Origin: a virus
Taxonomy: Duplodnaviria > Heunggongvirae > Uroviricota > Caudoviricetes
Virus record (IMG/VR): IMGVR_UViG_2568526441_000003
DNA length: 37,069 nt
Strand: one strand, 5' to 3'
Below the pieces are notes generated by a model. It saw only the letters and a list, made by a program, of their open reading frames with translations, did not search any database and had not been told where the DNA came from. Of this stretch, positions 1,136 to 28,240 are shown piece by piece; the first letter of the stretch is position 1; each line of letters starts with the position of its first letter. Both the position numbers and the translations under genes were made by a program.

Positions 1136-2812
1136 CTAAGCAACATGTAGTTCATCGTTGGCGGAAGTGGCTGCTTTGCGCTCCTGCTCAATAGCTAGAG
1201 ACTCTCTATATTCTTTCGCCTCTGCAAACATTGTCCAGTGGGCGTTGATGTTCATGTCTTCAATAACTGATTTGATTTCTTTTAAATTTACGTTAAAAAA
1301 CTCTTTTCGTGAGTTAATTTTATTGACCTGCTTTTCATTGAAAACTTTATGCAGATGGTTTTCTAATGATGGTGCATCATCACTATAAATCATCGCATGA
1401 ACATCGAACGAAAAAGGAACACTAGCATCTCCGAGTTCACGAACACGATCAAGTGGTTCAAGGCGGCGTGTCATTCCAATTTTATATACATCTTCGCCAA
1501 ATGAACCAATATTACTAATGATATAGACGTGGCCTGATCTGGTTTGTTGGGCCATAGAAATAGCTCGTTGATTTTTAGCTTCAGCTTCTTCATATTTTAA
1601 CTGTAGTTCAGCTATTTTTTGCTCTAAAGCTAAGCGTTGTTCTTCATTTGCAAGCATAAGTTCTTTCGTTGCTTTATTTATAGCTTGCTGAATAGCTTTT
1701 TCTTCTTTTTCAGCTTCTTTTATCGCTTTTTCATATTCTCTACGAGCTCTTTCCTCTTCACGAAGCTGTTCTTTAATCCTTCTTTGCTCTTCTTTTTCTT
1801 CGAGCATAATTTCATTAACTGCTACACCCCATTTTAGCTCGTTGAGTCTTGCCTGAAGATAGATGTCACTTATTTTTGCGGACCTAAAGGCAGAGCCATT
1901 GTAATTTACTAGTTGAAATGCATCTTTTATTTCTTGGGAAAGTTTTCCAAAATTGTTGTGTTTGACTTTTGATAAAATACTGTCAACTCTTCCATTGAAG
2001 GCATCCAAAACAAAGTTTATGGCAGTATTACGCCTGTTTTGCTCAACATAATCACACGAAGCAGCTTTATTAGTTTTTATTAATGATTTGGTTAACTCTC
2101 TGGCTTTTTGTAATTCCTTGCCTGCATCTGTAAATTCATAATTTTCTGCCAGCTCATCAAGTACACTACGGTTAGGGATGATCCATTCATCACCATAACC
2201 TTCAATTTTATTTTTCATTGATTTTGCAACTGCTTCATATTTTTCTGCAAACTCTTTAGCTTCATATGCTGAACCAGCAATCTCCTTTGCTCTTTCTTCT
2301 GCATCAGAAATAATTTTTACTGCATTGTCATTAGCATTTGAGATTAGCTCATTTGCTTTATTATTAGCATTATCAAGACGTTCTTTGGCTTTCAGGCGTG
2401 CATCGCGAGCGTCTTTGGTGATTGCTATAGCTTCGCTATTAGCGTTGCTTATTGTTATCTGAGCTTGATAATTTGCTTCGTTTACTGTTTTAGCCGCCTT
2501 AATTTGGGCTTCATCTATTTTTTGCTTGGCTATTGAGTCCGCATTTTTTATCTTATTCTCTGCATCCATTACTGCGCTGTGCAATTCTTCGTATTGCCAC
2601 AATGGTGCTGCTCGCCCTTCAAGCTCTGATAATTCTCGTACGGTCTGTGCTAGTTTTTCTTGATTTTCAATCAGTTGGTTAGAAAGGGCTATGTTGTTAG
2701 CTGTCAGGTTATCTATAGCCGCTTTGTGTTTTTTACTTTGTTTAAATAATATTACAGCTAGAACAGGGGCGAGAAATGCTAATAAGACTATAACGATGGC
2801 AAATGAATTCAT
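1136..2812 (-). CDS. cargo protein: N-terminal TM helix, long coiled coil, DUF4041-like region, C-terminal T5orf172 (GIY-YIG-like) domain; putative nuclease effector
   Basis: 558-aa ORF. N-terminus FAIVIVLLAFLAPVLAVILF is hydrophobic; long A/K/E/N-rich heptad-like stretches; C-terminal GHVYIISNIGSFGEDVYKIGMTRR matches the T5orf172/GIY-YIG-like signature from memory. Visibly AT-rich versus flanking phage DNA; SD-like AAGGA upstream of ATG; lies 20 nt downstream of cI stop on the same strand. Confidence 0.8.
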   Translation of the reverse strand: MNSFAIVIVLLAFLAPVLAVILFKQSKKHKAAIDNLTANNIALSNQLIENQEKLAQTVRELSELEGRAAPLWQYEELHSAVMDAENKIKNADSIAKQKIDEAQIKAAKTVNEANYQAQITISNANSEAIAITKDARDARLKAKERLDNANNKANELISNANDNAVKIISDAEERAKEIAGSAYEAKEFAEKYEAVAKSMKNKIEGYGDEWIIPNRSVLDELAENYEFTDAGKELQKARELTKSLIKTNKAASCDYVEQNRRNTAINFVLDAFNGRVDSILSKVKHNNFGKLSQEIKDAFQLVNYNGSAFRSAKISDIYLQARLNELKWGVAVNEIMLEEKEEQRRIKEQLREEERARREYEKAIKEAEKEEKAIQQAINKATKELMLANEEQRLALEQKIAELQLKYEEAEAKNQRAISMAQQTRSGHVYIISNIGSFGEDVYKIGMTRRLEPLDRVRELGDASVPFSFDVHAMIYSDDAPSLENHLHKVFNEKQVNKINSRKEFFNVNLKEIKSVIEDMNINAHWTMFAEAKEYRESLAIEQERKAATSANDELHVA

Positions 2813-5102: not shown

Positions 5103-5329
5103 TGGCTGATGCAATGGATCTCGTACAGCAGCGCGTTGAAGAAGAACGCCAGCGTCATATCCATGCTGCCCGTGCCAAAACGCCGGGCGTGTCCCGCGTG
5201 CTTTGCATTGAGTGTGAAGCGCCAATTCCGCCAGCACGCCGCCGTGCCATTCCGGGTGTGCAGCTTTGCATTACCTGTCAGGAAATCGCAGAGCTGAAAG
5301 GCAAACATTACAACGGAGGTGCTGTATGA
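5102..5329 (+). CDS. TraR/DksA-family C4 zinc-finger protein
   Basis: 75-aa ORF with CIECEAPIP...CITCQ (CxxC-N17-CxxC) zinc-finger arrangement typical of phage TraR/DksA-like proteins. Confidence 0.7.
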   Translation: MADAMDLVQQRVEEERQRHIHAARAKTPGVSRVLCIECEAPIPPARRRAIPGVQLCITCQEIAELKGKHYNGGAV

Positions 5330-6183
5330 GCACCATCCTGAAATGGGCGGGAAATAAAACTGCCATAATGTCCGAACTGAAAAAACATCTTCCTGCTGGC
5401 CCGCGACTGGTTGAACCTTTCGCGGGTTCCTGTGCTGTGATGATGGAGACGGATTATCCCAGCTATCTGGTTGCGGATATTAATCCTGATTTAATCAACC
5501 TCTATAAAAAGGTTGCCGCTGATTGTGAATCGTTTATATCTCGCGCCAGAGTTTTATTTGAGATCGCAAACAGGGAGGTGGCTTATTACAACATAAGGCA
5601 GGAGTTTAATTACTCAACTGAAATTACTGATTTCATGAAAGCGGTATATTTCCTGTATCTCAATCGTCACGGTTACCGTGGTTTATGTCGCTATAACAAG
5701 AGCGGGCATTTCAACATTCCCTACGGTAATTATAAAAATCCGTATTTCCCTGAAAAAGAAATTCGCGCATTTGCAGAAAAGGCCCAGCGAGCAACGTTTA
5801 TCTGCGCCAGCTTTGATGAAACGCTGGCGATGTTGAAGGCGGGGGATGTGGTGTATTGCGATCCGCCGTATGACGGTACGTTTTCCGGCTATCACACTGA
5901 CGGCTTCACTGAAGATGACCAGTATCACCTGGCATCTGTTCTTGAACATCGGTCATCAGAAGGACATCCGGTCATTGTTTCTAACAGTGACACATCCCTG
6001 ATCCGTTCGCTGTATCGCAATTTTACTCACCACTACATCAAGGCAAAACGCAGCATCGGTGTGGCAGCTGGCGAGGGTAAATCAGCAACAGAAATCATTG
6101 CTGTTTCTGGGCCGCGCTGCTGGGTGGGATTTGATTATTCGCGTGGCGTGGATAGTTCTGCCGTGTACGGAGTACGTGCATGA
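5326..6183 (+). CDS. dam: DNA N6-adenine methyltransferase (Dam-like, D12 class)
   Basis: 285 aa from ATG 5326 (ATGA overlap with upstream stop); motifs KWAGNK near the N-terminus and DPPY (CDPPYDGTF) are hallmark N6-adenine MTase motifs. Confidence 0.85.
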
Positions 6184-8594
6184 GTCATGCCGATATGAAC
6201 AACTGCTGCGGCTTTAACGAAGCTGCCGCATCGTTCTCATGGAACAGCCCGAAAAAGGCCATTAACCCTTATCTGGACCCGGCGGAAGTTGCGCCGGTTT
6301 CTACGCTTTCAAACCTGATCACTCTGTACGCTGCCGATAACGAGCAGGAACAGCTGCGCCGTGAGGCGCTGAGTGATCAGGTCTGGGAGCGTTATTTCTT
6401 TAATGAATCCCGTGATCCTGTCCAGCGCGAAATGGAGCAGGATAAGCTCATTAGCCGGGCAAAGTTGGCGCATGAGCAGCAGCGTTTTAACCCGGACATG
6501 GTCATTCTGGCAGACGTCAGCGCCCAGCCCTCCCATATCAGCAAGCCGCTGATGCAACGTATTGAATACTTCAGCAGCCTGGGCAGGCCAAAGGCTTATT
6601 CCCGCTATTTACGTGAGACGATTAAGCCATGTCTGGAACGACTGGAGCATGTACGCGACAGCCAGCTATCTGCATCTTTTCGTTTTATGGCAAGCCATGT
6701 AGGGCTGGACGGCCTGCTGATTCTGCCTGAAATGAGTCAGGATCAGGTGAAACGCCTGTCTACCCTTGTCGCTGCGCATATGAGCATGTGCCTTGATGCA
6801 GCTTGTGGTGATTTGTATGCCACCGATGACGTTAAGCCAGAAGAAATCCGCAAGACATGGGAAAAGGTGGCAGCGGAAACCCTGCGTCTGGATGTCATCC
6901 CGCCTGCGTTTGAGCAACTCCGTCGGAAAAGAAACCGCCGTAAACCCGTGCCCTATGAACTCATTCCGGGTTCGCTGGCGCGTATGTTGTGCGCCGACTG
7001 GTGGTACCGGAAATTATGGAAAATGCGTTGCGAATGGTGGGAAGAGCAGTTGCGTGCTGTCTGCCTGGTCAGCAAAAAAGCATCTCCCTATGTCAGCTAT
7101 GAAGCCGTGATGCATAAACGTGAGCAGCGCCGCAAGTCACTGGAGTTTTTCCGTTCTCATGAACTGGTGAACGAAGAGGGCGACACGCTGGATATGGAAG
7201 ACGTGGTAAACGCCAGCAGCAGCAACCCGGCGCACCGCCGCAATGAGATGATGGCCTGTGTTAAAGGTCTGGAGCTTATCGCGGAAATGCGCGGTGACTG
7301 CGCCGTTTTCTACACCATCACCTGTCCGTCACGTTTCCATTCCACGCTAAATAACGGCAGGCCAAACCCGACCTGGACCAATGCGACAGTAAGACAAAGC
7401 AGCGATTATCTGGTCGGCATGTTTGCTGCATTTCGTAAGGCTATGCACAAAGCCGGGTTGCGCTGGTATGGCGTGCGGGTGGCTGAGCCGCATCATGACG
7501 GCACAGTTCACTGGCACCTGTTGTGTTTCATGCGCAAAAAAGACCGCCGCGCCATTACTGCATTGTTGCGTAAGTTTGCCATCCGTGAAGACCGCGAGGA
7601 GCTGGGCAATAACACGGGGCCACGCTTTAAGTCTGAGCTGATAAACCCGCGCAAAGGAACGCCGACAAGCTACATTGCGAAATATATCAGTAAGAATATT
7701 GACGGGCGTGGTCTGGCTGGCGAGATCAGTAAGGAAACGGGTAAATCCCTGCGTGATAACGCTGAATACGTTAATGCCTGGGCGTCTCTGCATCGTGTTC
7801 AGCAATTCCGCTTCTTTGGCATTCCGGGGCGTCAGGCTTACCGTGAACTGCGATTGCTGGCTGGTCAGGCGGCAAGGCAACAGGGTGACAAAAAAGCAGG
7901 TGCGCCGGTACTGGATAACCCGCGTCTTGATGCCATTCTGGCTGCTGCTGATGCTGGTTGTTTTGCCACCTACATCATGAAGCAGGGCGGCGTACTGGTT
8001 CCCCGCAAATATCACCTCATCAGAACCGCTTATGAAATCAACGAAGAGCCAACCGCCTATGGCGATCACGGTATTCGTATTTATGGCATCTGGTCACCCA
8101 TTGCAGAGGGCAAGATCTGCACTCATGCAGTGAAGTGGAAAATGGTTCGTAAGGCCGTTGACGTTCAGGAGGCGGCAGCCGACCAGGGCGCTTGCGCCCC
8201 TTGGACTCGTGGCAATAACTGTCCCCTTGCTGAAAATTTGAACCAACAAGGGAAAGACAAATCAGCTGATGGGGATACCAGAACGGACATTACCCGCATG
8301 AATGACAAGGAGTTGCACGATTATCTGCACAGTATGAACAAAAAAGAGCGCCGGGAACTGGCTGCAAGGTTACGCCTGGTGAAACCGAAACGGCGTAGAG
8401 ACTACAAACAGCGAATTACAGACCATCAACGACAGCAGCTCGTCTATGAACTGAAGTCCAGAGGATTTGATGGCAGCGAGAAAGAGGTCGATTTACTCCT
8501 TCGCGGCGGCAGCATTCCGTCAGGAGCAGGCCTGCGAATCTTCTATCGGAACCAGCGTTTGCAGGAAGATGATAAGTGGCGGAACCTGTATTAA
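6180..8594 (+). CDS. A: replication initiation endonuclease A (rolling-circle initiator, P2 gpA family)
   Basis: 804-aa ORF; size, position after the early operon, and segments such as HWHLL and YIAKYISK resemble P2/186 gpA as recalled. Confidence 0.85.
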
Positions 8595-8747: not shown

Positions 8748-8936
8748 ATGCAGGACTATTTTTTGGAGTCTTTGAAGCTCCAGCGCATTGATTTTTTTCT
8801 TAAGCTTGTAGCGGCTAGTGAGTGTAGTGATGAAGAGAAGGGGCTGGCTTTGCAGTGGGTTTCTGAACTAACAGATGAACTCATGGCAAAAATCAGAACC
8901 CACGAATACAACCGCTCAATGGATGTCATCAGTTGA
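8748..8936 (+). CDS. small hypothetical protein, first gene of LexA-controlled module (possible Tum N-terminal counterpart)
   Basis: 62-aa ORF from ATG 8748 with GGAGGA SD 5 nt upstream; immediately downstream of the LexA box. Confidence 0.55.
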   Translation: MQDYFLESLKLQRIDFFLKLVAASECSDEEKGLALQWVSELTDELMAKIRTHEYNRSMDVIS

Positions 8937-8946
8937 GGTGACTTTT

Positions 8947-9180
8947 ATGCGCATTGAAATAATGATCGATAAAGAGCAGAAGATTAGCCAGTCTATCCTG
9001 GACGCCCTTGAATCCGAGCTTTACCGCAATCTGCGCCCCCTGTATCCAAAAACGGTAATTCGTATCCGCAAAGGTAGCTCTAACGGTGTGGAACTGACCG
9101 GACTGCAACTGGACGAAGAAAGGAAGCAAGTGATGAAAATTATGCAGAAGGTGTGGGAAGACGATAGCTGGCTGCATTAA
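8947..9180 (+). CDS. DinI-family protein (Tum-like SOS-inducible antirepressor module)
   Basis: 77 aa, MRIEIMIDKEQ...VWEDDSWLH; begins and ends like E. coli DinI (MRIEV...W...W) as recalled; own SD-like GAGGTG upstream; 186 Tum is known to carry a DinI-like C-terminal domain. Confidence 0.7.
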   Translation: MRIEIMIDKEQKISQSILDALESELYRNLRPLYPKTVIRIRKGSSNGVELTGLQLDEERKQVMKIMQKVWEDDSWLH

Positions 9181-9354: not shown

Positions 9355-10413
9355 TTAATTTTCAATTCCCTCCATTTTACAATGAGTTTTTTCCCAGAAC
9401 TGTAATACAACAGGACTAGCCCACTCTGGCATCAGTGCGTTATTTAAAAAACTGAAAACATCATGAGACGCATCAGCATTTTTTCTAAGGAATTTCCAGC
9501 CTTTTCTAGTATTTATCTCAACAATACCTAACCCACCATCATTAAACATATGCATCTTGAATTCAGGATTGTTTACACCTAGAGATTTTATTTCTTTTAT
9601 GTATGGACTATCTTCATCCATAAATATTTTCTCTATGTGCTTAGCACAATGATATATTTTATTTCGATAAGTTGATACGCTCACAGCGGTACGCGCTGTT
9701 GTTATTCCCATTCCTAATGGGGCATATGCTTTTCCATCCATCACTACGGGCAGATTTATTCCATTTTTTCTTAAGTTTGCAATATCTGAATCTGTAGTTG
9801 GATGAATACAAGCTAAGCCTGAAATACCTTTCATTTCAAATATTTCTGCTGCTTCTGGCCAGTTGCGTATGAATGTTTCTACCAAATCTCTTTGAGAAAA
9901 AAGATTTGGTTCTATGTTTTTATCATGATGTTTTATATCAATAAAAAGCACAGCGTTTGAGTACACCTTCAGGAATAATACCCACTCAGCACGATCTGAG
10001 TATTTTTTACTTGAACTTACTGGATTTAATGGCAGATGGAGGTGATGAATCCCCCAATCAGCCCATAGGTTATCCGTTCTTTTCGTCGCCTTTTTACCGC
10101 TTGTGTCATTGAATAATGTTAATGTTTTACTCTGATAAGGATTTACATCACCACCAGTAGTAAACAACATCTCGATTCTCTGCAATCCAACCCTTGCGCC
10201 ATCGTGAATATTTTCAGGAAATCGATCTGATTTTAAAATTATTCGTTTTTGTGGAGCAATGTAGCGTAAAAGAAAATCACACCACCTCAGTAGAGGATCG
10301 TGAAGATTTGAGTGCCCGGATTCATCATATAATAACCCAAATGCTTGAATTCCCTTCTCTGAAATTTCGTCAATATCTTTGATTAGATCAATATTTTTTC
10401 GTGCGTCCAACAT
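9355..10413 (-). CDS. uncharacterized 352-aa cargo protein at the tin/old-equivalent variable locus; candidate defense or exclusion gene
   Basis: Long ORF on the strand opposite the early operon, visibly AT-rich, GGAG SD 6 nt upstream of ATG; I recognise no family. Confidence 0.65.
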   Translation of the reverse strand: MLDARKNIDLIKDIDEISEKGIQAFGLLYDESGHSNLHDPLLRWCDFLLRYIAPQKRIILKSDRFPENIHDGARVGLQRIEMLFTTGGDVNPYQSKTLTLFNDTSGKKATKRTDNLWADWGIHHLHLPLNPVSSSKKYSDRAEWVLFLKVYSNAVLFIDIKHHDKNIEPNLFSQRDLVETFIRNWPEAAEIFEMKGISGLACIHPTTDSDIANLRKNGINLPVVMDGKAYAPLGMGITTARTAVSVSTYRNKIYHCAKHIEKIFMDEDSPYIKEIKSLGVNNPEFKMHMFNDGGLGIVEINTRKGWKFLRKNADASHDVFSFLNNALMPEWASPVVLQFWEKTHCKMEGIEN

Positions 10414-10807
10414 ACTAACTCCGTTTAAATATAATTTTTTAGTATTTCAGTTAATTAATATCTATACGCCGTTATAGCTGAATTTTCCGGTGATTTCAGG
10501 GCACATTAACCAATTTAGATAATACTATAGTAATGGTTGGGCTGATTTTTCAAGAACAAAAGTAATTTTCAAGCTTTGTAACATGTTGATTTTCCACTTT
10601 TCGCTCAAGCGGGCTTTCATCTTTGCAAGCCCATATGTTCGTTTTTCAAGCGATTATTCAGATACGTTAACTTCCCATGGCAGTGCATAACTATGCTGCA
10701 TGAAATCGCATGATCGATCGAGGATCGTCTATGCTTAGACCAGCCAGAAATGGCGGGCTTTTGCTCATGTCATGCAGCTGCATGAAAACCACTGCATAAA
10801 GTGGGCA

Positions 10808-10826
10808 GGCGTGGCGGGGATACGAG
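10808..10826. other. candidate cos site (cohesive-end region)
   Basis: GGCGTGGCGGGGA at 10808..10820 matches the first 13 nt of the 19-nt cohesive end of 186/P2 as recalled from memory (GGCG[T/A]GGCGGGGAAAGCA-); GC-rich islet inside AT-rich DNA; flanked by a direct repeat GCTGCATGAAA (10696..10706 and 10777..10787) and a 14-bp palindrome CATGCAGCTGCATG (10771..10784). Confidence 0.45.
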
Positions 10827-10946
10827 CGCGCGCTAGAAACGTTTACTGATATTCTTGTAGTACATTGCATTTTTCTTTTTTTATGTCATATCATTAGCCA
10901 TTTGAATAGGACATTATTATCAATTTGTTGTCTCTGAGGATAAGTT

Positions 10947-12728
10947 ATGAATTTTGATGCAACACCACTAAATATAAAAAACATTCTATCTGTAAAACAA
11001 AGATATGTTATTCCTCGTAATCAACGTGAGTTTAGTTGGGAAAAGCTTCAGCTTGAAGAGTTATGGCAAGATATTGTCAGAAACATAAGGTTGAATGAAG
11101 ATGGACAGAACTTGGAGTGTTCAGAATATTTTATAGGGACTATTGTTCTTTCTGGAGCAGATAGTGATGATGTATTAGAAGTGGTTGATGGACAACAACG
11201 ATTTTCAGTTATTACTATATTGCTTTCATTAATATCGCGTAAATTGCGTTCCTTAGGGCAAGATTCATTAGCGGATGATATATTTAAAACATATATCGTT
11301 ACTGTGAGTCCTACATTTAGCAGAAGCCAATTAGCTTCAAATGGTGAGACATTTATTGAAAAATTAGCAAAAAATAGCGATAGAACATATTTTAAGTTAA
11401 AATATCAAGATCGCGAAGAGCATCAAGTTGATGAATCTTGTGAAGAGGATGTACGTATAAGTTATGCAGGAATTTTTCTTTCTAGAAAACTAGGGAGGAA
11501 ATCACTCTGTTCTGCATTGTTGCGAGATGGTGCAAAACATTATAATAACCAAGATTATATATTTTGTTTGACTGCTGTATATAGAATGATTACCAATTAT
11601 TTGAAGTTGGTAAAAATATCTGTAGGTAAGGAGGATGATGCTTATGATATTTTTGAAGTGTTGAATGCTCGAGGGATAAACTTAAGTTCAATTGATTTGA
11701 TAAAGAATAAAGTATTCCAAACTTGCACTCAAACATATCCGGTAGATATTGCAAAAACAAAATGGGATTATATCGTTACTCAAATTGAGTCTAGGGATAG
11801 TAATAGCACTATTGCTGATTATATTAGAACGTGGTGGCTTTCTAAGTATAATTATATTGGAGAAGATCAACTTTATCGTGCTTTTAAACGTGAGATTCAA
11901 GATGAGAATACTTTATTGTCATCAGCATCATTTCTGAACGAATTATATGATGATGTTGAATTATACTGTAAAATAATAGCGCCAAATACAGATGACTGGC
12001 CTCAACCTGATCAGCGTGAAATTTACAACTCGTTAAAAGCATTCGAGATTTTTAATGTGAGTATTCCTCGACCATTTGTACTCTCATTACTTAGAAAACG
12101 TAAAGAGAAACCGAGAGCCCTTACACAATCAATGCTGATAGAATGTTTGAAGTCCTTAGAGTCATTTCACTTTAAGTTTAATGCAGTATGTCGTCTAAGA
12201 CCATCTGGAATCGATGCAAAATATTCTGTATTAGCAGTAAGAATGAATAAGGCATTAAATAAAAGAGATGTTGAGGGTGTTATTAATGACGCGTTAGATT
12301 ATTTTACACAGAAAGGACCTTCAGAAAATATATTCAAACAAGCATTTTCAAAGAATATTGTTTATACAAATAAAAAGTCTGGGCAAAGGAAGTTGATTGT
12401 TTATATTTTTGACAAATTGGAACGTATCAGACGAGGGACGCGAGAGTTAAAAATGGATATAGTTTCTTTGGAACACATATCATCTCAAAGCAAAACTAAC
12501 GAGTCAGTCGTGGGTATGATTGGTAATTTACTACCACTCTGTTTTTCACTTAATGAAGATTGCAAAAATTATGAGTTGCACAAAAAAATAGAATCTTATA
12601 AAAAATCTGATTTAAAATTAGTTACAGAGTTTGTTAGTGAGTCAGAAGCAAGAGAACATAAATGGGATGATTCATTAATAAAAGAAAGAACAGATGGCTT
12701 GGCGTTAGAAACGTTTGCTAAAATATAA
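10947..12728 (+). CDS. DUF262/DUF1524 (GmrSD-family) putative type IV modification-dependent restriction endonuclease
   Basis: 593 aa; N-terminal ParB-like DUF262 signature (NQREFSWEKLQLEELWQDI ... VVDGQQR) and C-terminal His-Me-finger-like segment (LEHISSQSK); GAGGA SD upstream; visibly AT-rich. Confidence 0.75.
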   Translation: MNFDATPLNIKNILSVKQRYVIPRNQREFSWEKLQLEELWQDIVRNIRLNEDGQNLECSEYFIGTIVLSGADSDDVLEVVDGQQRFSVITILLSLISRKLRSLGQDSLADDIFKTYIVTVSPTFSRSQLASNGETFIEKLAKNSDRTYFKLKYQDREEHQVDESCEEDVRISYAGIFLSRKLGRKSLCSALLRDGAKHYNNQDYIFCLTAVYRMITNYLKLVKISVGKEDDAYDIFEVLNARGINLSSIDLIKNKVFQTCTQTYPVDIAKTKWDYIVTQIESRDSNSTIADYIRTWWLSKYNYIGEDQLYRAFKREIQDENTLLSSASFLNELYDDVELYCKIIAPNTDDWPQPDQREIYNSLKAFEIFNVSIPRPFVLSLLRKRKEKPRALTQSMLIECLKSLESFHFKFNAVCRLRPSGIDAKYSVLAVRMNKALNKRDVEGVINDALDYFTQKGPSENIFKQAFSKNIVYTNKKSGQRKLIVYIFDKLERIRRGTRELKMDIVSLEHISSQSKTNESVVGMIGNLLPLCFSLNEDCKNYELHKKIESYKKSDLKLVTEFVSESEAREHKWDDSLIKERTDGLALETFAKI

Positions 12729-12735
12729 GTTCAGT

Positions 12736-12754
12736 GGCAGGTATAGTACCTGCC
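12736..12754 (+). terminator. hairpin (8-bp stem, 3-nt loop) after the GmrSD-like gene
   Basis: GGCAGGTA-TAG-TACCTGCC followed by a moderately T-rich ATTATTCAATTT; lies between convergent gene ends. Confidence 0.4.
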
Positions 12755-12764
12755 ATTATTCAAT

Positions 12765-13802
12765 TTACATACACTCCACTGAGTATTCACTGAATGAGAT
12801 GATGTTTTTTTTAGCCCATTCATTAAGTTGCAGAATATGTTTTTGAATTGGTAGTAACTCATTCATAACAAATACTTTCGCGGCCTTTTCCACATCCCCA
12901 AACCCCCCAACATTATTTGGCATAATCCCCATCATTTGCGGCGGCACTCGGTGTGCTGCCATCATGTCATCGCGGCTCACGTTCTTGATATTCAGAAACT
13001 CATCCTTCGCTGCGACTTCTGACAACGGGATAATCTGAAGTCCGTCCTTTTTGCCGTTAGGCGAGTACATAAACAGATTGCGGAAGTTGCCTGGACCTTT
13101 GGCGCTTTTCATCGCGTTGCGGAGGTTGTTCACATCCTCCTGATTCTGCGCGGCGTCGGTCATGTACATGATGAAGCCTGCATGACTACCGTTGATGTAA
13201 TACTTACGGCGGAACAGCGTGGCGGATTCGTTGAGCAGGGCGGATGGAATGGCAGAAAGATAGCCGGGCAGGCCGTAGATCTCCTGGTTGATGTCCGGTT
13301 CCATCAGATGAAAAATGCTGCCTTTCGTGAACTGATACTGCTGGGTTGTCATACCGTATTGCACAAACCAGTAGGTATCCAGGTCTAACCCGCGTCGGGT
13401 GTATTTTGCCAGCGCAGGCTCAAGGGCGATAACTTCACCGAATCGGTTCGTGCGTTTCTCCAGGTAGGCGTTACCAAATACCAGATAGTCCTGCACAAAA
13501 CGCGAAAAAGCCTGTTGGCTGAGCAGCGGATGAGGGATATAGGTACTGGTCAGAATGTTGCACTTTACTGCAATCGGGGAACTGTGATGCACGGCAGCGC
13601 GGAAGGTGCGCGCCAGTCCGTCAAAGCTGACGGGAGGCTCATACCAGCGATCTGTCTGAACACATTCCACATAGTCCAGCAGTTCGCGGCGGTCAAGTAC
13701 TGGAACGGGATCACCGAAGCTGAATGCTTCGGCTGAAGTCTGGTTTTTATGCTGGATCTGATTCGTCGCCGCAGCGCGGTTTTTCTTACTCTTTCCCATC
13801 AA
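12765..13802 (-). CDS. Q: capsid portal protein Q
   Basis: 345-aa ORF, leftward, overlapping the terminase gene start by 4 nt; matches P2 Q position and size. Confidence 0.85.
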   Translation of the reverse strand: MMGKSKKNRAAATNQIQHKNQTSAEAFSFGDPVPVLDRRELLDYVECVQTDRWYEPPVSFDGLARTFRAAVHHSSPIAVKCNILTSTYIPHPLLSQQAFSRFVQDYLVFGNAYLEKRTNRFGEVIALEPALAKYTRRGLDLDTYWFVQYGMTTQQYQFTKGSIFHLMEPDINQEIYGLPGYLSAIPSALLNESATLFRRKYYINGSHAGFIMYMTDAAQNQEDVNNLRNAMKSAKGPGNFRNLFMYSPNGKKDGLQIIPLSEVAAKDEFLNIKNVSRDDMMAAHRVPPQMMGIMPNNVGGFGDVEKAAKVFVMNELLPIQKHILQLNEWAKKNIISFSEYSVECM

Positions 13803-21076: not shown

Positions 21077-21515
21077 ATTGCAGAAGGTGGACGACTGGCT
21101 GAGTGCCTTGCTGGCGAATCTGGAGCCAGCCGCAAGAAGCCGTATGATGCGCCAGCTGGCGCAGGAACTGCGCCGGACACAGCAGCAGAATATCAGGATG
21201 CAGCGCAATCCTGATGGCAGCAGTTATGAACCGCGCAGGGTAACAGCACGCAGCAAAAAAGGCCGCATCAAACGTCAGATGTTTGCAAAGCTGCGCACCA
21301 CAAAATACCTGAAAACTGCCGCCAGCGCCGACTCTGCCAGCGTACAGTTTGAAGGCAAGGTGCAGCGTATTGCCCGTGTTCACCATTACGGCCTGCGTGA
21401 TCGCGTCAGTCGCAAAGGACCGGAGGTCCGTTACGCAGAGCGCCGCCTGCTGGGTCTTAATGGTGAGTCTTATGTTCTAACTCTTGATATATTGAATAGA
21501 TTCCTTCTGTCTTGA
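21069..21515 (+). CDS. S: tail completion protein S (3' end runs into AT-rich insertion)
   Basis: 148 aa; synteny; last about 19 codons lie in AT-rich DNA and overlap the convergent cargo ORF. Confidence 0.7.
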   Translation: MAELQKVDDWLSALLANLEPAARSRMMRQLAQELRRTQQQNIRMQRNPDGSSYEPRRVTARSKKGRIKRQMFAKLRTTKYLKTAASADSASVQFEGKVQRIARVHHYGLRDRVSRKGPEVRYAERRLLGLNGESYVLTLDILNRFLLS

Positions 21516-22263
21516 ATTCACCATATGCCCAATGAATTGCATTTTTTTGTTCAGTTAGAATATATTTCCTAACTTTTTTAGAATAGTGAATGGTCAGTAT
21601 AAAACCCAAAGAAATCCATAATAGAATAAATATAGTTGTTGGGGCAAAGGAATAGATAAAAAATTTGTCTTTAACGAAATTCTTGACTTCTTCATCAATG
21701 TAAGCATTCCCTTCATCAGTGGTTAGTAGTTTACAAAGAATTTCTTTATGTTCGATAGTTAATGATTTGTACTTCTCTGTACTGGCAGAGGATGACTCTT
21801 CGCAATCATCCTTTGATATTTCCCAATCAGGAGTGGTTAATATTGTAGCTGCAGTCGCCATTTTTTTTGACATATAAAATGATTCACCGGACTTTATCCA
21901 ATAAAGCAATGTGCTATTTGGTGGGGTTCTAATGGCTTGGATGAAAACTGGACCAAAAAGATAAATTGCACACAAAAAAAGAAGCGAAAATAGAACCGTG
22001 AATGATTTTTCAGCCCATGTGATAGTAGGCAGCCTTTTTAATGATATTTTTATAAGAAAAAAATTTAATATAAACGCAGGTATTCCTGATTTTTTCAAAA
22101 TTACATCATGAGATTTTCTATATTTGAATAGTGCTCTTATAACTATCGTCACCAAAGTTATAACAGCTCCAATAATGGAAATCCATGCGGCAAGTGCCGC
22201 TGCTGGGGTGTTTAAAAATTCAGCATTAAATATATTAGAACTTATTGGATTCATAACACTCAT
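21457..22263 (-). CDS. cargo: uncharacterized 268-aa multi-pass membrane protein inserted between S and V; candidate exclusion or abortive-infection protein
   Basis: Visibly AT-rich; strong SD AGGTGGA 4 nt upstream of ATG; at least four hydrophobic helices (e.g. AAALAAWISIIGAVITLVTIVI, FTVLFSLLFLCAIYLFGPVFI, IYSFAPTTIFILLWISLGFILTI) around an acidic/Ser-rich soluble segment; opposite strand to the late operon. Confidence 0.7.
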   Translation of the reverse strand: MSVMNPISSNIFNAEFLNTPAAALAAWISIIGAVITLVTIVIRALFKYRKSHDVILKKSGIPAFILNFFLIKISLKRLPTITWAEKSFTVLFSLLFLCAIYLFGPVFIQAIRTPPNSTLLYWIKSGESFYMSKKMATAATILTTPDWEISKDDCEESSSASTEKYKSLTIEHKEILCKLLTTDEGNAYIDEEVKNFVKDKFFIYSFAPTTIFILLWISLGFILTIHYSKKVRKYILTEQKNAIHWAYGEFKTEGIYSIYQELEHKTHH

Positions 22264-26332: not shown

Positions 26333-26934
26333 TGGGTGGAGCTGTATTAAATGATGCGCTGATCGCGGTAAAGGCAGGGGATATTACCGTTTATAACTAT
26401 GATAATGGGACACAGGAATATATCTCAACATCAACCGAATATCTTGCTGTCGGTGTCGGTATCCCGGCATGTTCTTGTTTAGATGCACCTGGTACACATA
26501 AAACGGGTTATGCAATTTGCCGCTCAACGGATTTGAACTCGTGGAAATATGTGCCAGACCATCGCGGTGAAATTGTTTATAGCACCGAAACGGGAGAACC
26601 AAAAGAAATCACAGCGCCAGGGGATTACCCTGAAAATATGACCACTATCGCTCCGTTAACACCATACGATAAATGGGATGGTGAGAAATGGGTAACCGAT
26701 ACCGAGGCACAATACGGTGCCGCAATAGAAGCGGCAGAAGCACAGCGCCAGTCACTGATTGATACTGCAATGGCTTCAATTAGTCTGATTCAACTGAAAT
26801 TGCAGGCCGGGAGGAAGCTGACGCAGACAGAAAACACCCGACTTAACGCCGTGCTGGATTACATTGACGCGGTGATGGCAACGGATACCAGCACTGTACC
26901 TGATATTTACTGGCCCGAATTACCTCAATTTTAA
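26332..26934 (+). CDS. G: tail fiber assembly chaperone G
   Basis: 200 aa directly after H; synteny. Confidence 0.75.
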   Translation: MGGAVLNDALIAVKAGDITVYNYDNGTQEYISTSTEYLAVGVGIPACSCLDAPGTHKTGYAICRSTDLNSWKYVPDHRGEIVYSTETGEPKEITAPGDYPENMTTIAPLTPYDKWDGEKWVTDTEAQYGAAIEAAEAQRQSLIDTAMASISLIQLKLQAGRKLTQTENTRLNAVLDYIDAVMATDTSTVPDIYWPELPQF

Positions 26935-26942
26935 ATTCCTAC

Positions 26943-26965
26943 CCCCGCGTCTGCGGGGCTTTTTT
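26943..26965 (+). terminator. rho-independent terminator after G
   Basis: CCCCGC-GTCT-GCGGGG hairpin (6-bp GC stem) followed by TTTTTT. Confidence 0.7.
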
Positions 26966-26982
26966 CATCACCGTTGTGCCAT
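26965..26982. promoter_or_regulatory. late-promoter dyad TGT-N12-ACA (candidate PF, Ogr-dependent)
   Basis: TGTgccattctccatACA about 94 nt upstream of the FI start. Confidence 0.5.
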
Positions 26983-27067
26983 TCTCCATACAAATCCCAA
27001 TTCGTGCATCCTGTGCGTATCAACCAGAACATAGTCAGACCTACTCTACAACCGGAGAGACTGCCTT

Positions 27068-28240
27068 ATGGCTCAGGATTACCACCACGGGGTGCGCGTT
27101 GTTGAAGTCAACGAAGGTACCCGATCCATTACCACGGTGAGCACCGCCATCGTGGGCATGGTCTGCACGGGCGATGATGCCGATGCAAAAATGTTTCCTC
27201 TTAATAAACCCGTGCTGATCACTGATGTGCTGACTGCCAGCGGTAAAGCGGGTGAGTCCGGCACGCTGGCCCGTTCGCTGGATGCCATCGCTGACCAGGC
27301 AAAACCCGTGACCGTTGTTGTGCGTGTGCCGCAGGGTGAAACGGAAGAAGAAACCACGACCAATATCATCGGCGCAGTGACTGCTGAAGGTAAAAAAACA
27401 GGCATGAAAGCCCTGTTATCTGCCCAGACACAGCTCGGCGTTAAACCGCGCATTCTCGGCGTGCCAGGTCACGATAACAAAGCCGTTGCGACTGAGTTGC
27501 TGAGTGTGGCGCAAAGCCTGCGTGGGTTTGCCTACCTGTCAGCGTATGGCTGCAAGACGGTACAGGAGGCGATCACTTACCGTGAAAACTTCAGCCAGCG
27601 CGAAGGAATGCTGATCTGGCCCGACTTTACTGGCTGGGACACGGTGCTGAATGCCGAAGCAACGGCATATGCCACCGCCCGTGCGCTTGGTCTGCGTGCC
27701 AAAATTGATGAGCAGACTGGGTGGCACAAAAGCCTGTCCAACGTGGGCGTGAACGGTGTCACCGGAATTTCTGCAGATGTGTTCTGGGATCTGCAGGACC
27801 CGGCAACCGATGCAGGTCTGCTGAACCAGAACGACGTCACCACGCTTGTGCGTAAAGACGGTTTCCGCTTCTGGGGTTCCCGCTGCCTGAGTGATGACCC
27901 GCTCTTTGCTTTCGAAAACTACACCCGCACGGCGCAGGTGCTGACGGACACAATGGCAGAAGCGCACATGTGGGCAGTGGACAAACCGCTGAACCCGTCG
28001 CTGGCGCGCGACATTATCGAGGGCATCCGCGCCAAAATGCGCAGCCTGGTCAGTCAGGGGTATCTCATTGGTGGTGATTGCTGGCTGGACGAGTCGGTGA
28101 ACGACAAAGACACTCTGAAAGCCGGAAAACTCACCATCGACTACGACTACACGCCAGTGCCGCCACTTGAAAATCTGATGTTGCGTCAGCGCATCACCGA
28201 TCAGTACCTGGTGAATTTCGCCAGCCAGGTCAGCGCGTAA
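27068..28240 (+). CDS. FI: tail sheath protein FI
   Basis: 390 aa; synteny and size. Confidence 0.85.

Follow-up and report, generated by a model that had tools for sequence, protein, structure and literature searches.

A DUF262/DUF1524 nuclease gene of the HEC-06/DndI branch as probable anti-phage cargo beside the cos site of a 186-like prophage

What does an AT-rich nuclease gene do beside the packaging site of a temperate phage, and which DNA would its product attack? The question is raised by a viral sequence of 37,069 nucleotides (IMG/VR record IMGVR_UViG_2568526441_000003; Caudoviricetes), analysed over its whole length and called the window here. The window holds a 186-like prophage of the P2 family, which is integrated beside rcdA according to the Prokaryotic Genome Annotation Pipeline (PGAP) annotation of an identical locus. 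An initial annotation, made from the letters alone, described a gene for a 593-residue protein between the candidate cohesive-end site (cos) and the portal gene Q as a putative type IV restriction enzyme of the GmrSD type. The reading that we favor, with a probability of roughly 0.6, is that this gene encodes a stand-alone anti-phage nuclease of the HEC-06/DndI branch, that it is exchangeable cargo of the gpA-cos-gpQ hotspot, and that the enzyme is probably modification-dependent in the manner of type IV enzymes.

The coding sequence and its functional parts are given below. Conservation was judged from an alignment (A1) of 30 homologues, with identity down to 35%.

10947 to 12728, plus strand: coding sequence of the 593-residue GmrSD-superfamily protein, stop codon included, with an ATG start (open reading frame list, PGAP annotation of the identical locus, Pfam and PADLOC matches)
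10974 to 11717, plus strand: DUF262/GmrSD_N domain (ParB-like nucleoside triphosphatase, NTPase), residues 10-257 (Pfam PF03235)
11187 to 11201, plus strand: DGQQR motif, residues 81-85, invariant in A1
12318 to 12704, plus strand: DUF1524/GmrSD_C domain (His-Me finger nuclease), residues 458-586 (Pfam PF07510)
12471 to 12554, plus strand: catalytic core E509-H510...G526-N527-L528...N536, invariant in A1

The assignment to the GmrSD superfamily is virtually certain. The boundaries of the open reading frame had been given exactly, and searches with hidden Markov models recovered both predicted domains: PF03235 matched over its entire profile (E 2.1e-32, 113 bits against a gathering cut-off of 33.2), and PF07510 matched with E 2.4e-11 (44 bits, gathering cut-off 23). 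A helical linker joins them. The RefSeq entry for the protein in the identical locus is WP_022645420, named by PGAP only as a DUF262 domain-containing protein, and an NCBIfam search returned no meaningful match for it or for the 352-residue cargo protein encoded nearby. Met1 and the N-terminus are kept across the 30 homologues. The invariant positions of A1 include D81-G-Q-Q-R85, E509-H510, Q514, G526-N527-L528, P530 and N536, and the window protein retains all 73 invariant and 40 nearly invariant positions. Its His-Me segment reads LEHISSQ...GNLLPL...N536. In the AlphaFold2 model (mean predicted local distance difference test score, pLDDT, 86.3), a strand at 506-510 with E509-H510 at its end, a strand at 528-532 and a helix at 533-539 form a beta-beta-alpha metal finger; pLDDT around this core is mostly 84-94, and 75 for residues 501-510. 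Both motifs noted at first are thus intact and invariant in the family, and the gene is intact and looks catalytically competent from its sequence and model. The frame, its domains and motifs, its base composition, the cos, portal Q and the methylase gene described below are all features well outside what chance would give.

To which branch of the superfamily does the protein belong? The best PADLOC models were those of HEC-06, matched at full length (9.2e-75 and 4.1e-73); in the better one, PDLC04154, residues 3-586 aligned with profile positions 7-557 of 569. The "Orf5" models came next, also at full length (up to 5.8e-66). On our reading of two papers, this name appears to denote ORF5 of the dpt/dnd cluster of Salmonella Cerro 87 (Xu 2010, PMC2978375), now called DndI (PMC11662687). 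The SspE and mREase_IV models were much weaker and partial, the latter at 2.6e-14 in short stretches, of which the best was residues 212-261. The tested HEC-06 protein, compared through its first 399 residues (Table S2 of Payne et al.), was collinear with the window protein at 24% identity (E 2e-27), and hhalign gave a probability of 99.9 and E 1e-35 over 370 columns. Only DndI, SspE and BrxU were found as solved relatives. A search of the Protein Data Bank (PDB) with the single sequence matched DndI (9JFL, 8.7e-12) and also SspE; with the family profile DndI was matched at full length (1.7e-36, 1-572 against 1-587), SspE was matched only in its N-domain, and no BrxU match was obtained at E<=0.01. 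Two 818-residue structures labeled "DUF262 domain-containing protein" (20yv_A/20yw_A) also matched the N-domain of the profile, about as well as SspE (6e-15). Foldseek ranked DndI first (1.3e-16, template modeling (TM) score 0.56), then SspE (7e-14) and then BrxU (2e-5, TM 0.35). The alignment to HEC-05, which is 99.2% identical to BrxU, extended across no more than 83 N-terminal columns, in the DUF262 core (E 4.5e-7); with HEC-05 standing in for BrxU, homology to this characterized type IV enzyme does not appear to run the full length. The PADLOC, PDB and Foldseek results and the alignments to HEC-06 and HEC-05 together place the protein, by sequence and predicted fold, in the HEC-06/DndI branch and outside the canonical GmrSD/BrxU branch. 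The superfamily domains of the first description therefore stand, and its type IV label is plausible by analogy with the family.

HEC-06 is the most useful relative for judging function. According to Payne et al. (10.1101/2024.01.29.577857), it comes from E. coli MOD1-EC1687 (WP_096851903), protects on its own in E. coli K-12 without restriction-modification (R-M) systems, and loses defence completely with the substitutions Q79A and R80A (in DGQQR) and E471A and H472A (in the nuclease). The equivalent residues are conserved here, Q84 and R85 by alignment and E509 and H510 by motif, and all four are invariant in A1. Both proteins are products of single genes with DUF262, a helical linker and DUF1524, and both have the DGQQR and E-H motifs. 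They differ in setting, HEC-06 having been discovered inside Hma and type I R-M systems and the present gene occupying a prophage hotspot of the P2 type, and in sequence: HEC-06 has Phe where the window protein has Asn25, and EHICP in place of EHISS. A Bacteroides homologue of HEC-06 (HEC-06_Bact) blocked T-even phages but not T4-GT7, whose cytosine is unmodified. The likeness to EcoCT596GmrSD, Eco94GmrSD and BrxU consists of the Pfam domain pair, DGQQR and (D/E)H motifs, and GmrSD too is prophage-borne. Eco94GmrSD is stimulated by ATP and GTP, cuts DNA with glucosylated hydroxymethylcytosine (glc-hmC) or hydroxymethylcytosine (hmC), and acts poorly on Dam+ Dcm+ lambda DNA (PMC4437046). Payne et al. 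(10.1101/2024.01.29.577857) give an RLFDS motif as present in BrxU and absent from GmrSD, SspE and HEC-06.

The likeness to DndI brings in a different explanation, namely a nickase that senses a self mark, as DndI and SspE do: it would nick by default, a host mark would stimulate its NTPase and restrain nicking, and unmarked DNA would be attacked. The mark could be phosphorothioate supplied by dnd or ssp genes elsewhere in the host genome, or N6-methyladenine (m6A) from Dam. DndI and SspE are nickases whose NTPase is stimulated by host phosphorothioate through a pocket containing a Tyr (DndI Y25, SspE Y30; for DndI, PMC11662687), and they depend on the Dnd or Ssp modification genes (for DndI, PMC11662687). 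The sequence, profile and fold matches given above speak for this explanation, with DndI the best solved match, SspE next and BrxU far behind, as do the full-length "Orf5" matches. DndI is of nearly the same length (596 against 593 residues) and shares the DGQQR ATPase motif and the HNH nickase domain; its identity, however, is about 18%, and its HNH is described as two strands and a loop where the model here has beta-beta-alpha. SspE, of the SspABCD-SspE system (PDB 6JIV/7DRS), likewise has DGQQR in an N-terminal DUF262 domain and a nuclease at the C-terminus, and is the second-best fold match, but it has 771 residues, aligns only over its N-terminal 100 residues or so, and requires SspABCD.

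Gene context and one residue argue against a self-mark nickase. DndI works with IscS-DndBCDE, whereas no dnd or ssp genes were found in the prophage window or within 6 kb of five sampled homologues. Asn25 (in IPRNQREFSW) aligns with the phosphorothioate-sensing Tyr25 of DndI; HEC-06 has Phe there, BrxU has Ile, and the more distant members of A1 carry Tyr or Phe. The homologues stand alone on several kinds of mobile element. One that is 69% identical (P0011) occupies the same slot, in the order DinI, cos, gene and portal, in another 186-like prophage that lacks the 352-residue gene; others lie on an IncFII plasmid, in lambdoid Klebsiella prophages, and in chromosomal islets of Enterobacter and Aeromonas. 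Cargo carried from host to host by prophages and plasmids has to function alone and cannot depend on a rare host modification system, which favors a stand-alone NTP-gated His-Me nuclease. HEC-06, the closer relative, indeed acts alone in E. coli K-12 without R-M. As for m6A as the mark, Dam belongs to the backbone of 186-like prophages irrespective of cargo, and no methylase gene adjoins the homologues on the plasmid and in the lambdoid prophages. A self-mark nickase is thus improbable. Since dnd and ssp genes are missing from the neighborhood and the sensing Tyr is replaced by Asn, a stand-alone and probably modification-dependent nuclease is the best reading.

As to how such a stand-alone nuclease would work, we infer from its characterized relatives that the protein would act as a dimer and that nucleotide hydrolysis by the N-domain would gate DNA nicking or cutting by the C-domain. 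A lysogen would thereby be shielded from superinfecting phages. The likeliest trigger would be hypermodified phage DNA, for example T-even DNA with hmC or glucosyl-hmC; the protein would then be a type IV-like, modification-dependent enzyme. In our estimate a role in defence is highly probable, and for modification dependence the balance tips only slightly in favor.

The substrate is the part of this proposal that is most open to another explanation. The protein might be a defence nuclease triggered by something other than a modification, for example a phage protein, free DNA ends or replication intermediates, and might act directly or by abortive infection; phages with ordinary DNA would then be hit too. 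In a 2025 survey of enterobacterial GmrSD proteins (PMC12373910), 8 of the 15 groups were active in restriction of T-even phages, and the seven that gave no protection leave room for other targets. HEC-06 and HEC-05/BrxU have different defence profiles according to Payne et al. (10.1101/2024.01.29.577857), and over-expressed canonical GmrSD shows relaxed "star" activity and toxicity (PMC4437046). The polar Asn of this clade is also unusual in DUF262, where the characterized relatives have Tyr, Phe or Ile. On the other hand, the superfamily members with a defined trigger (GmrSD, BrxU, HEC-06_Bact, SspE and DndI) all read the modification state of DNA, and no conserved partner gene that could act as a sensor was seen beside the sampled homologues. 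We regard a trigger other than a modification as unlikely, although it deserves more weight than the self-mark explanation.

Several points weigh against a stand-alone, modification-dependent nuclease. Identity to HEC-06 is low (24% over the 399 residues compared). Only about 83 columns, in the DUF262 core, resemble canonical GmrSD and BrxU, and mREase_IV matches only short stretches. DndI, the nearest solved relative, attacks DNA that lacks the host phosphorothioate and is not modification-dependent in the type IV style. WP_022645420 was assigned in the 2025 survey to cluster CLS_026, with 7 members, which lies outside the 20 clusters that supplied the tested representatives (PMC12373910), and 7 of the 15 groups tested there were inactive on T-even phages. 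Finally, a standard promoter scan from cos to the ATG found no sigma-70-like site, and a relaxed scan gave the single candidate listed here. Without a convincing upstream promoter, expression of the nuclease in the lysogen is an assumption.

10865 to 10894, plus strand: weak promoter candidate TTGCAT-18-TATCAT, matching the consensus at only 8 of 12 positions (relaxed scan)
10936 to 10940, plus strand: Shine-Dalgarno-like GAGGA, 6 nt 5' of the ATG (sequence reading)

The location of the gene was the second subject of the initial annotation, which had placed AT-rich cargo between the candidate cos and portal gene Q. This was borne out. The GC content of the 593-residue frame is 0.323, against 0.53-0.54 for gpA and for the portal and terminase genes. 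The cos was recognized by inspection of the intergenic sequence and by its alignment with the ends of the 186 genome, and the features around it are as follows.

10682 to 10836, no strand: conserved cos-region block of about 155 bp (blastn against phages, 83-89% identity, query 263-424)
10808 to 10826, no strand: candidate 19-nucleotide cos of the 186 type, GGCGTGGCGGGGATACGAG (homology to the 186 end)
12733 to 12757, no strand: hairpin with an 11-bp stem, a probable bidirectional terminator between the convergent stops of the nuclease and portal Q genes (terminator scan)

The candidate cos sits inside the 533-bp gap that separates the nuclease gene from the divergent 352-residue frame. Over its first 13 nt GGCGTGGCGGGGATACGAG agrees with the annotated 186 cos, GGCGTGGCGGGGAAAGCAT, and a GCGCGC common to both comes next. 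The linear 186 genome aligns with its right end (...CATAAAGTGGGCA) as far as base 10807. The 19-mer is a variant that differs from 186 at 4 positions and from P2 at 5, the mismatches lying, with one exception, in the last six bases, and a search with the P2 19-mer allowing <=3 mismatches gave no match. The same variant is found in the 186-like prophage that carries the homologue P0011 (locus L005, 5888-5916). The block at 10682-10836 is common to Fels-2, SopEPhi and many P2-like phages of Klebsiella and Yersinia, and the sequence to the right of 10836 is cargo-specific. The candidate cos is thus well supported by these alignments, which put the nuclease gene between cos and Q. The present prophage and L005 diverge directly after ...GCGCGCGCT, some 10 bp past the right edge of the 19-mer, which leaves very little conserved sequence on the Q side. 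At the other end of the gene, the stop of portal Q at 12765 lies 37 bp past that of the nuclease, the two genes being convergent, and P2 and 186 carry the terminators tQ/tW at the place equivalent to the hairpin.

In P2 and 186 all cargo is on the gpA side of cos, with only about 170-180 bp from cos to the portal stop, whereas here there is one cargo gene on each side and this distance is about 1.95 kb. The arrangement itself had been recognized at the outset and taken as noteworthy. Two-sided cargo was considered as an unusual feature and rejected, since it is common in P2-like prophages of E. coli. A search of 5,426 complete E. coli genomes with the sequence from the cos block through the 3' end of the portal gene showed many prophages in which 1.1-2.3 kb separate the two conserved pieces. 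The intervening genes are unrelated and encode P-loop NTPase, PIN-domain, S1 peptidase, SieB, DUF4145, STAS-like and hypothetical proteins. In other E. coli prophages the slot on the Q side is empty, as in H80 (a span of 755 bp).

A defence hotspot of P2 between gpA and gpQ has been published (Rousset 2022, PMC9122126; Vassallo 2022, PMC9519451), and the nuclease gene has its features: position, adjacency to cos, deviant GC content and variable occupancy of the slot. The known cargo of P2 and 186 (old, tin, orf97 and the systems of Rousset 2022 and Vassallo 2022) likewise consists of AT-rich, swappable genes or small operons in this slot that exclude phages. Table S5A of Rousset 2022 (PMC9122126) contains the exact arrangement seen here, WP_001154434, WP_022645420, WP_022645419 and WP_001217562, labeled as "hypothetical + DUF262/DUF1524 + hypothetical + DinI". 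Unrelated DUF262/DUF1524 proteins are also present in the P2 hotspot, for example WP_094658700 of survey cluster CLS_024 (Rousset Table S5A; PMC12373910 Dataset 6); several GmrSD subfamilies have therefore been recruited there independently.

The position next to cos could also suggest that the gene has no role in defence, being either a decaying remnant or a gene for DNA metabolism or packaging of the prophage. The cos is only 120 bp away, and a strong promoter was not detected. Against this, the frame is full length with its 73 invariant and 40 nearly invariant positions intact, P2 and 186 package normally with the slot empty, unrelated genes fill it in other E. coli prophages, and homologues are found on plasmids and in lambdoid prophages far from any cos. 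This explanation is very improbable. A 3.5-kb stretch with the nuclease gene is 100% identical in at least 47 complete E. coli genomes, the nuclease frame being intact. A tblastn search of 50,697 phage records gave only distant (23%) matches in Listeria prophages, and the gene was found in no isolate of that collection.

Does the methylase of the prophage conflict with such a nuclease? A question of self-compatibility had been raised from the presence of a Dam methylase gene in the same prophage. The gene is present, immediately before that of the replication endonuclease:

5326 to 6183: DNA adenine methylase (PGAP annotation)
6180 to 8594: replication endonuclease gpA (PGAP annotation)

The encoded enzyme is closely related to E. 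coli Dam (2e-73 to 2G1P) and very probably puts on GATC sites the m6A that the host chromosome already bears. Dam is present in the backbone of 186-like prophages whatever the cargo, both at this locus and in the P0011 prophage, and the intact nuclease gene is found alongside it in dozens of genomes. A self-restriction problem caused by Dam was considered and rejected on the grounds of this homology, of this coexistence, and of the characterized GmrSD enzymes, which do not target Dam+ Dcm+ DNA (PMC4437046). The concern is thus weak, because the enzyme, as a homologue of E. coli Dam, very probably adds no new mark.

Dam would matter only under one speculative proposal, which we consider a long shot. 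The Asn25 clade, being nearer to DndI than to canonical GmrSD, might consist of stand-alone enzymes that are neither hmC-directed in the classical type IV manner nor sensors of phosphorothioate, and might read another epigenetic state. In one version, the self mark that restrains the nickase would be the ubiquitous Dam m6A of the host, to which the prophage Dam adds, and under-methylated or differently modified incoming DNA would be attacked. In the other version, the target would be a class of phage hypermodification that has so far not been linked to GmrSD enzymes.

The nuclease gene is part of a larger set of cargo. The prophage begins with the integrase, a DUF4041 protein, CI, CII, Fil, the DNA adenine methylase and gpA; after gpA come a 62-residue frame, a DinI/Tum-like gene, the 352-residue frame, the 593-residue frame, the portal and terminase genes, and the morphogenesis genes. 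Two further cargo genes were matched to defence models:

1136 to 2812, minus strand: PD-Lambda-1-like gene of 558 residues, AT-rich, with DUF4041 and T5orf172/MUG113, between the integrase and CI genes (PADLOC 2.3e-120)
9355 to 10413, minus strand: PD-T4-7, the divergent cargo gene of 352 residues (PADLOC PDLC04066, E 3.9e-144, full length)

PD-T4-7 has been validated as a single gene of 1059 bp, described as "RelE toxin-like", that acts by abortive infection against T4 (Vassallo 2022, PMC9519451), and the gene in the window has the same length. A promoter-like sequence, TTGAAA-18-TATAGT, is present in its upstream region at 10553-10524 (minus strand). The possibility that PD-T4-7 and the nuclease form one system was rejected: the P0011 prophage lacks PD-T4-7, the two genes are divergent with cos between them, and PD-T4-7 was validated singly. 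Judged by these matches, the prophage holds three recognizable defence genes, namely the PD-Lambda-1-like gene, PD-T4-7 and the nuclease gene.

Other parts of the prophage were noted in passing. The 62-residue hypothetical frame and a 77-residue gene of the DinI family (Tum-like) lie at 8748-9180 (plus strand) between gpA and the cargo, like the SOS operon of 186; for this region the open reading frame list also gives overlapping longer alternative starts, of 96 and 101 residues. A 268-residue DUF6216 gene with a GC content of about 0.34 lies antisense at 21457-22263 (minus strand), between the homologue of the tail-completion gene S and baseplate gene V, and had no PADLOC match. We take its position to correspond to that of orf30 in P2. 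The Z/fun slot, the second one for defence genes in P2, falls at about 26934-27068, where the tail-fibre assembly genes adjoin those of the tail sheath; it appears empty, the gap in the PGAP annotation being only about 134 bp.

A literature search for GmrSD together with P2-like phages found no paper. The protein, an ordinary example of a known and actively investigated kind, is nevertheless already catalogued in supplementary tables of two publications (Rousset 2022, Table S5A; PMC12373910). The finding adds one more subfamily (CLS_026) to the diverse GmrSD nucleases traded among E. coli prophages at the P2 cos hotspot; outside cataloguing it has little importance, and its practical value is modest. 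With three defence genes, the prophage could alter how readily phages infect the clinical E. coli lineages in which it resides. The short conserved sequence on the Q side of cos could also bear on which P4-like satellites such helpers package. The position of the protein between HEC-06 and DndI could help to define the residues by which some DUF262-DUF1524 enzymes read a modification on phage DNA and others a mark on host DNA.

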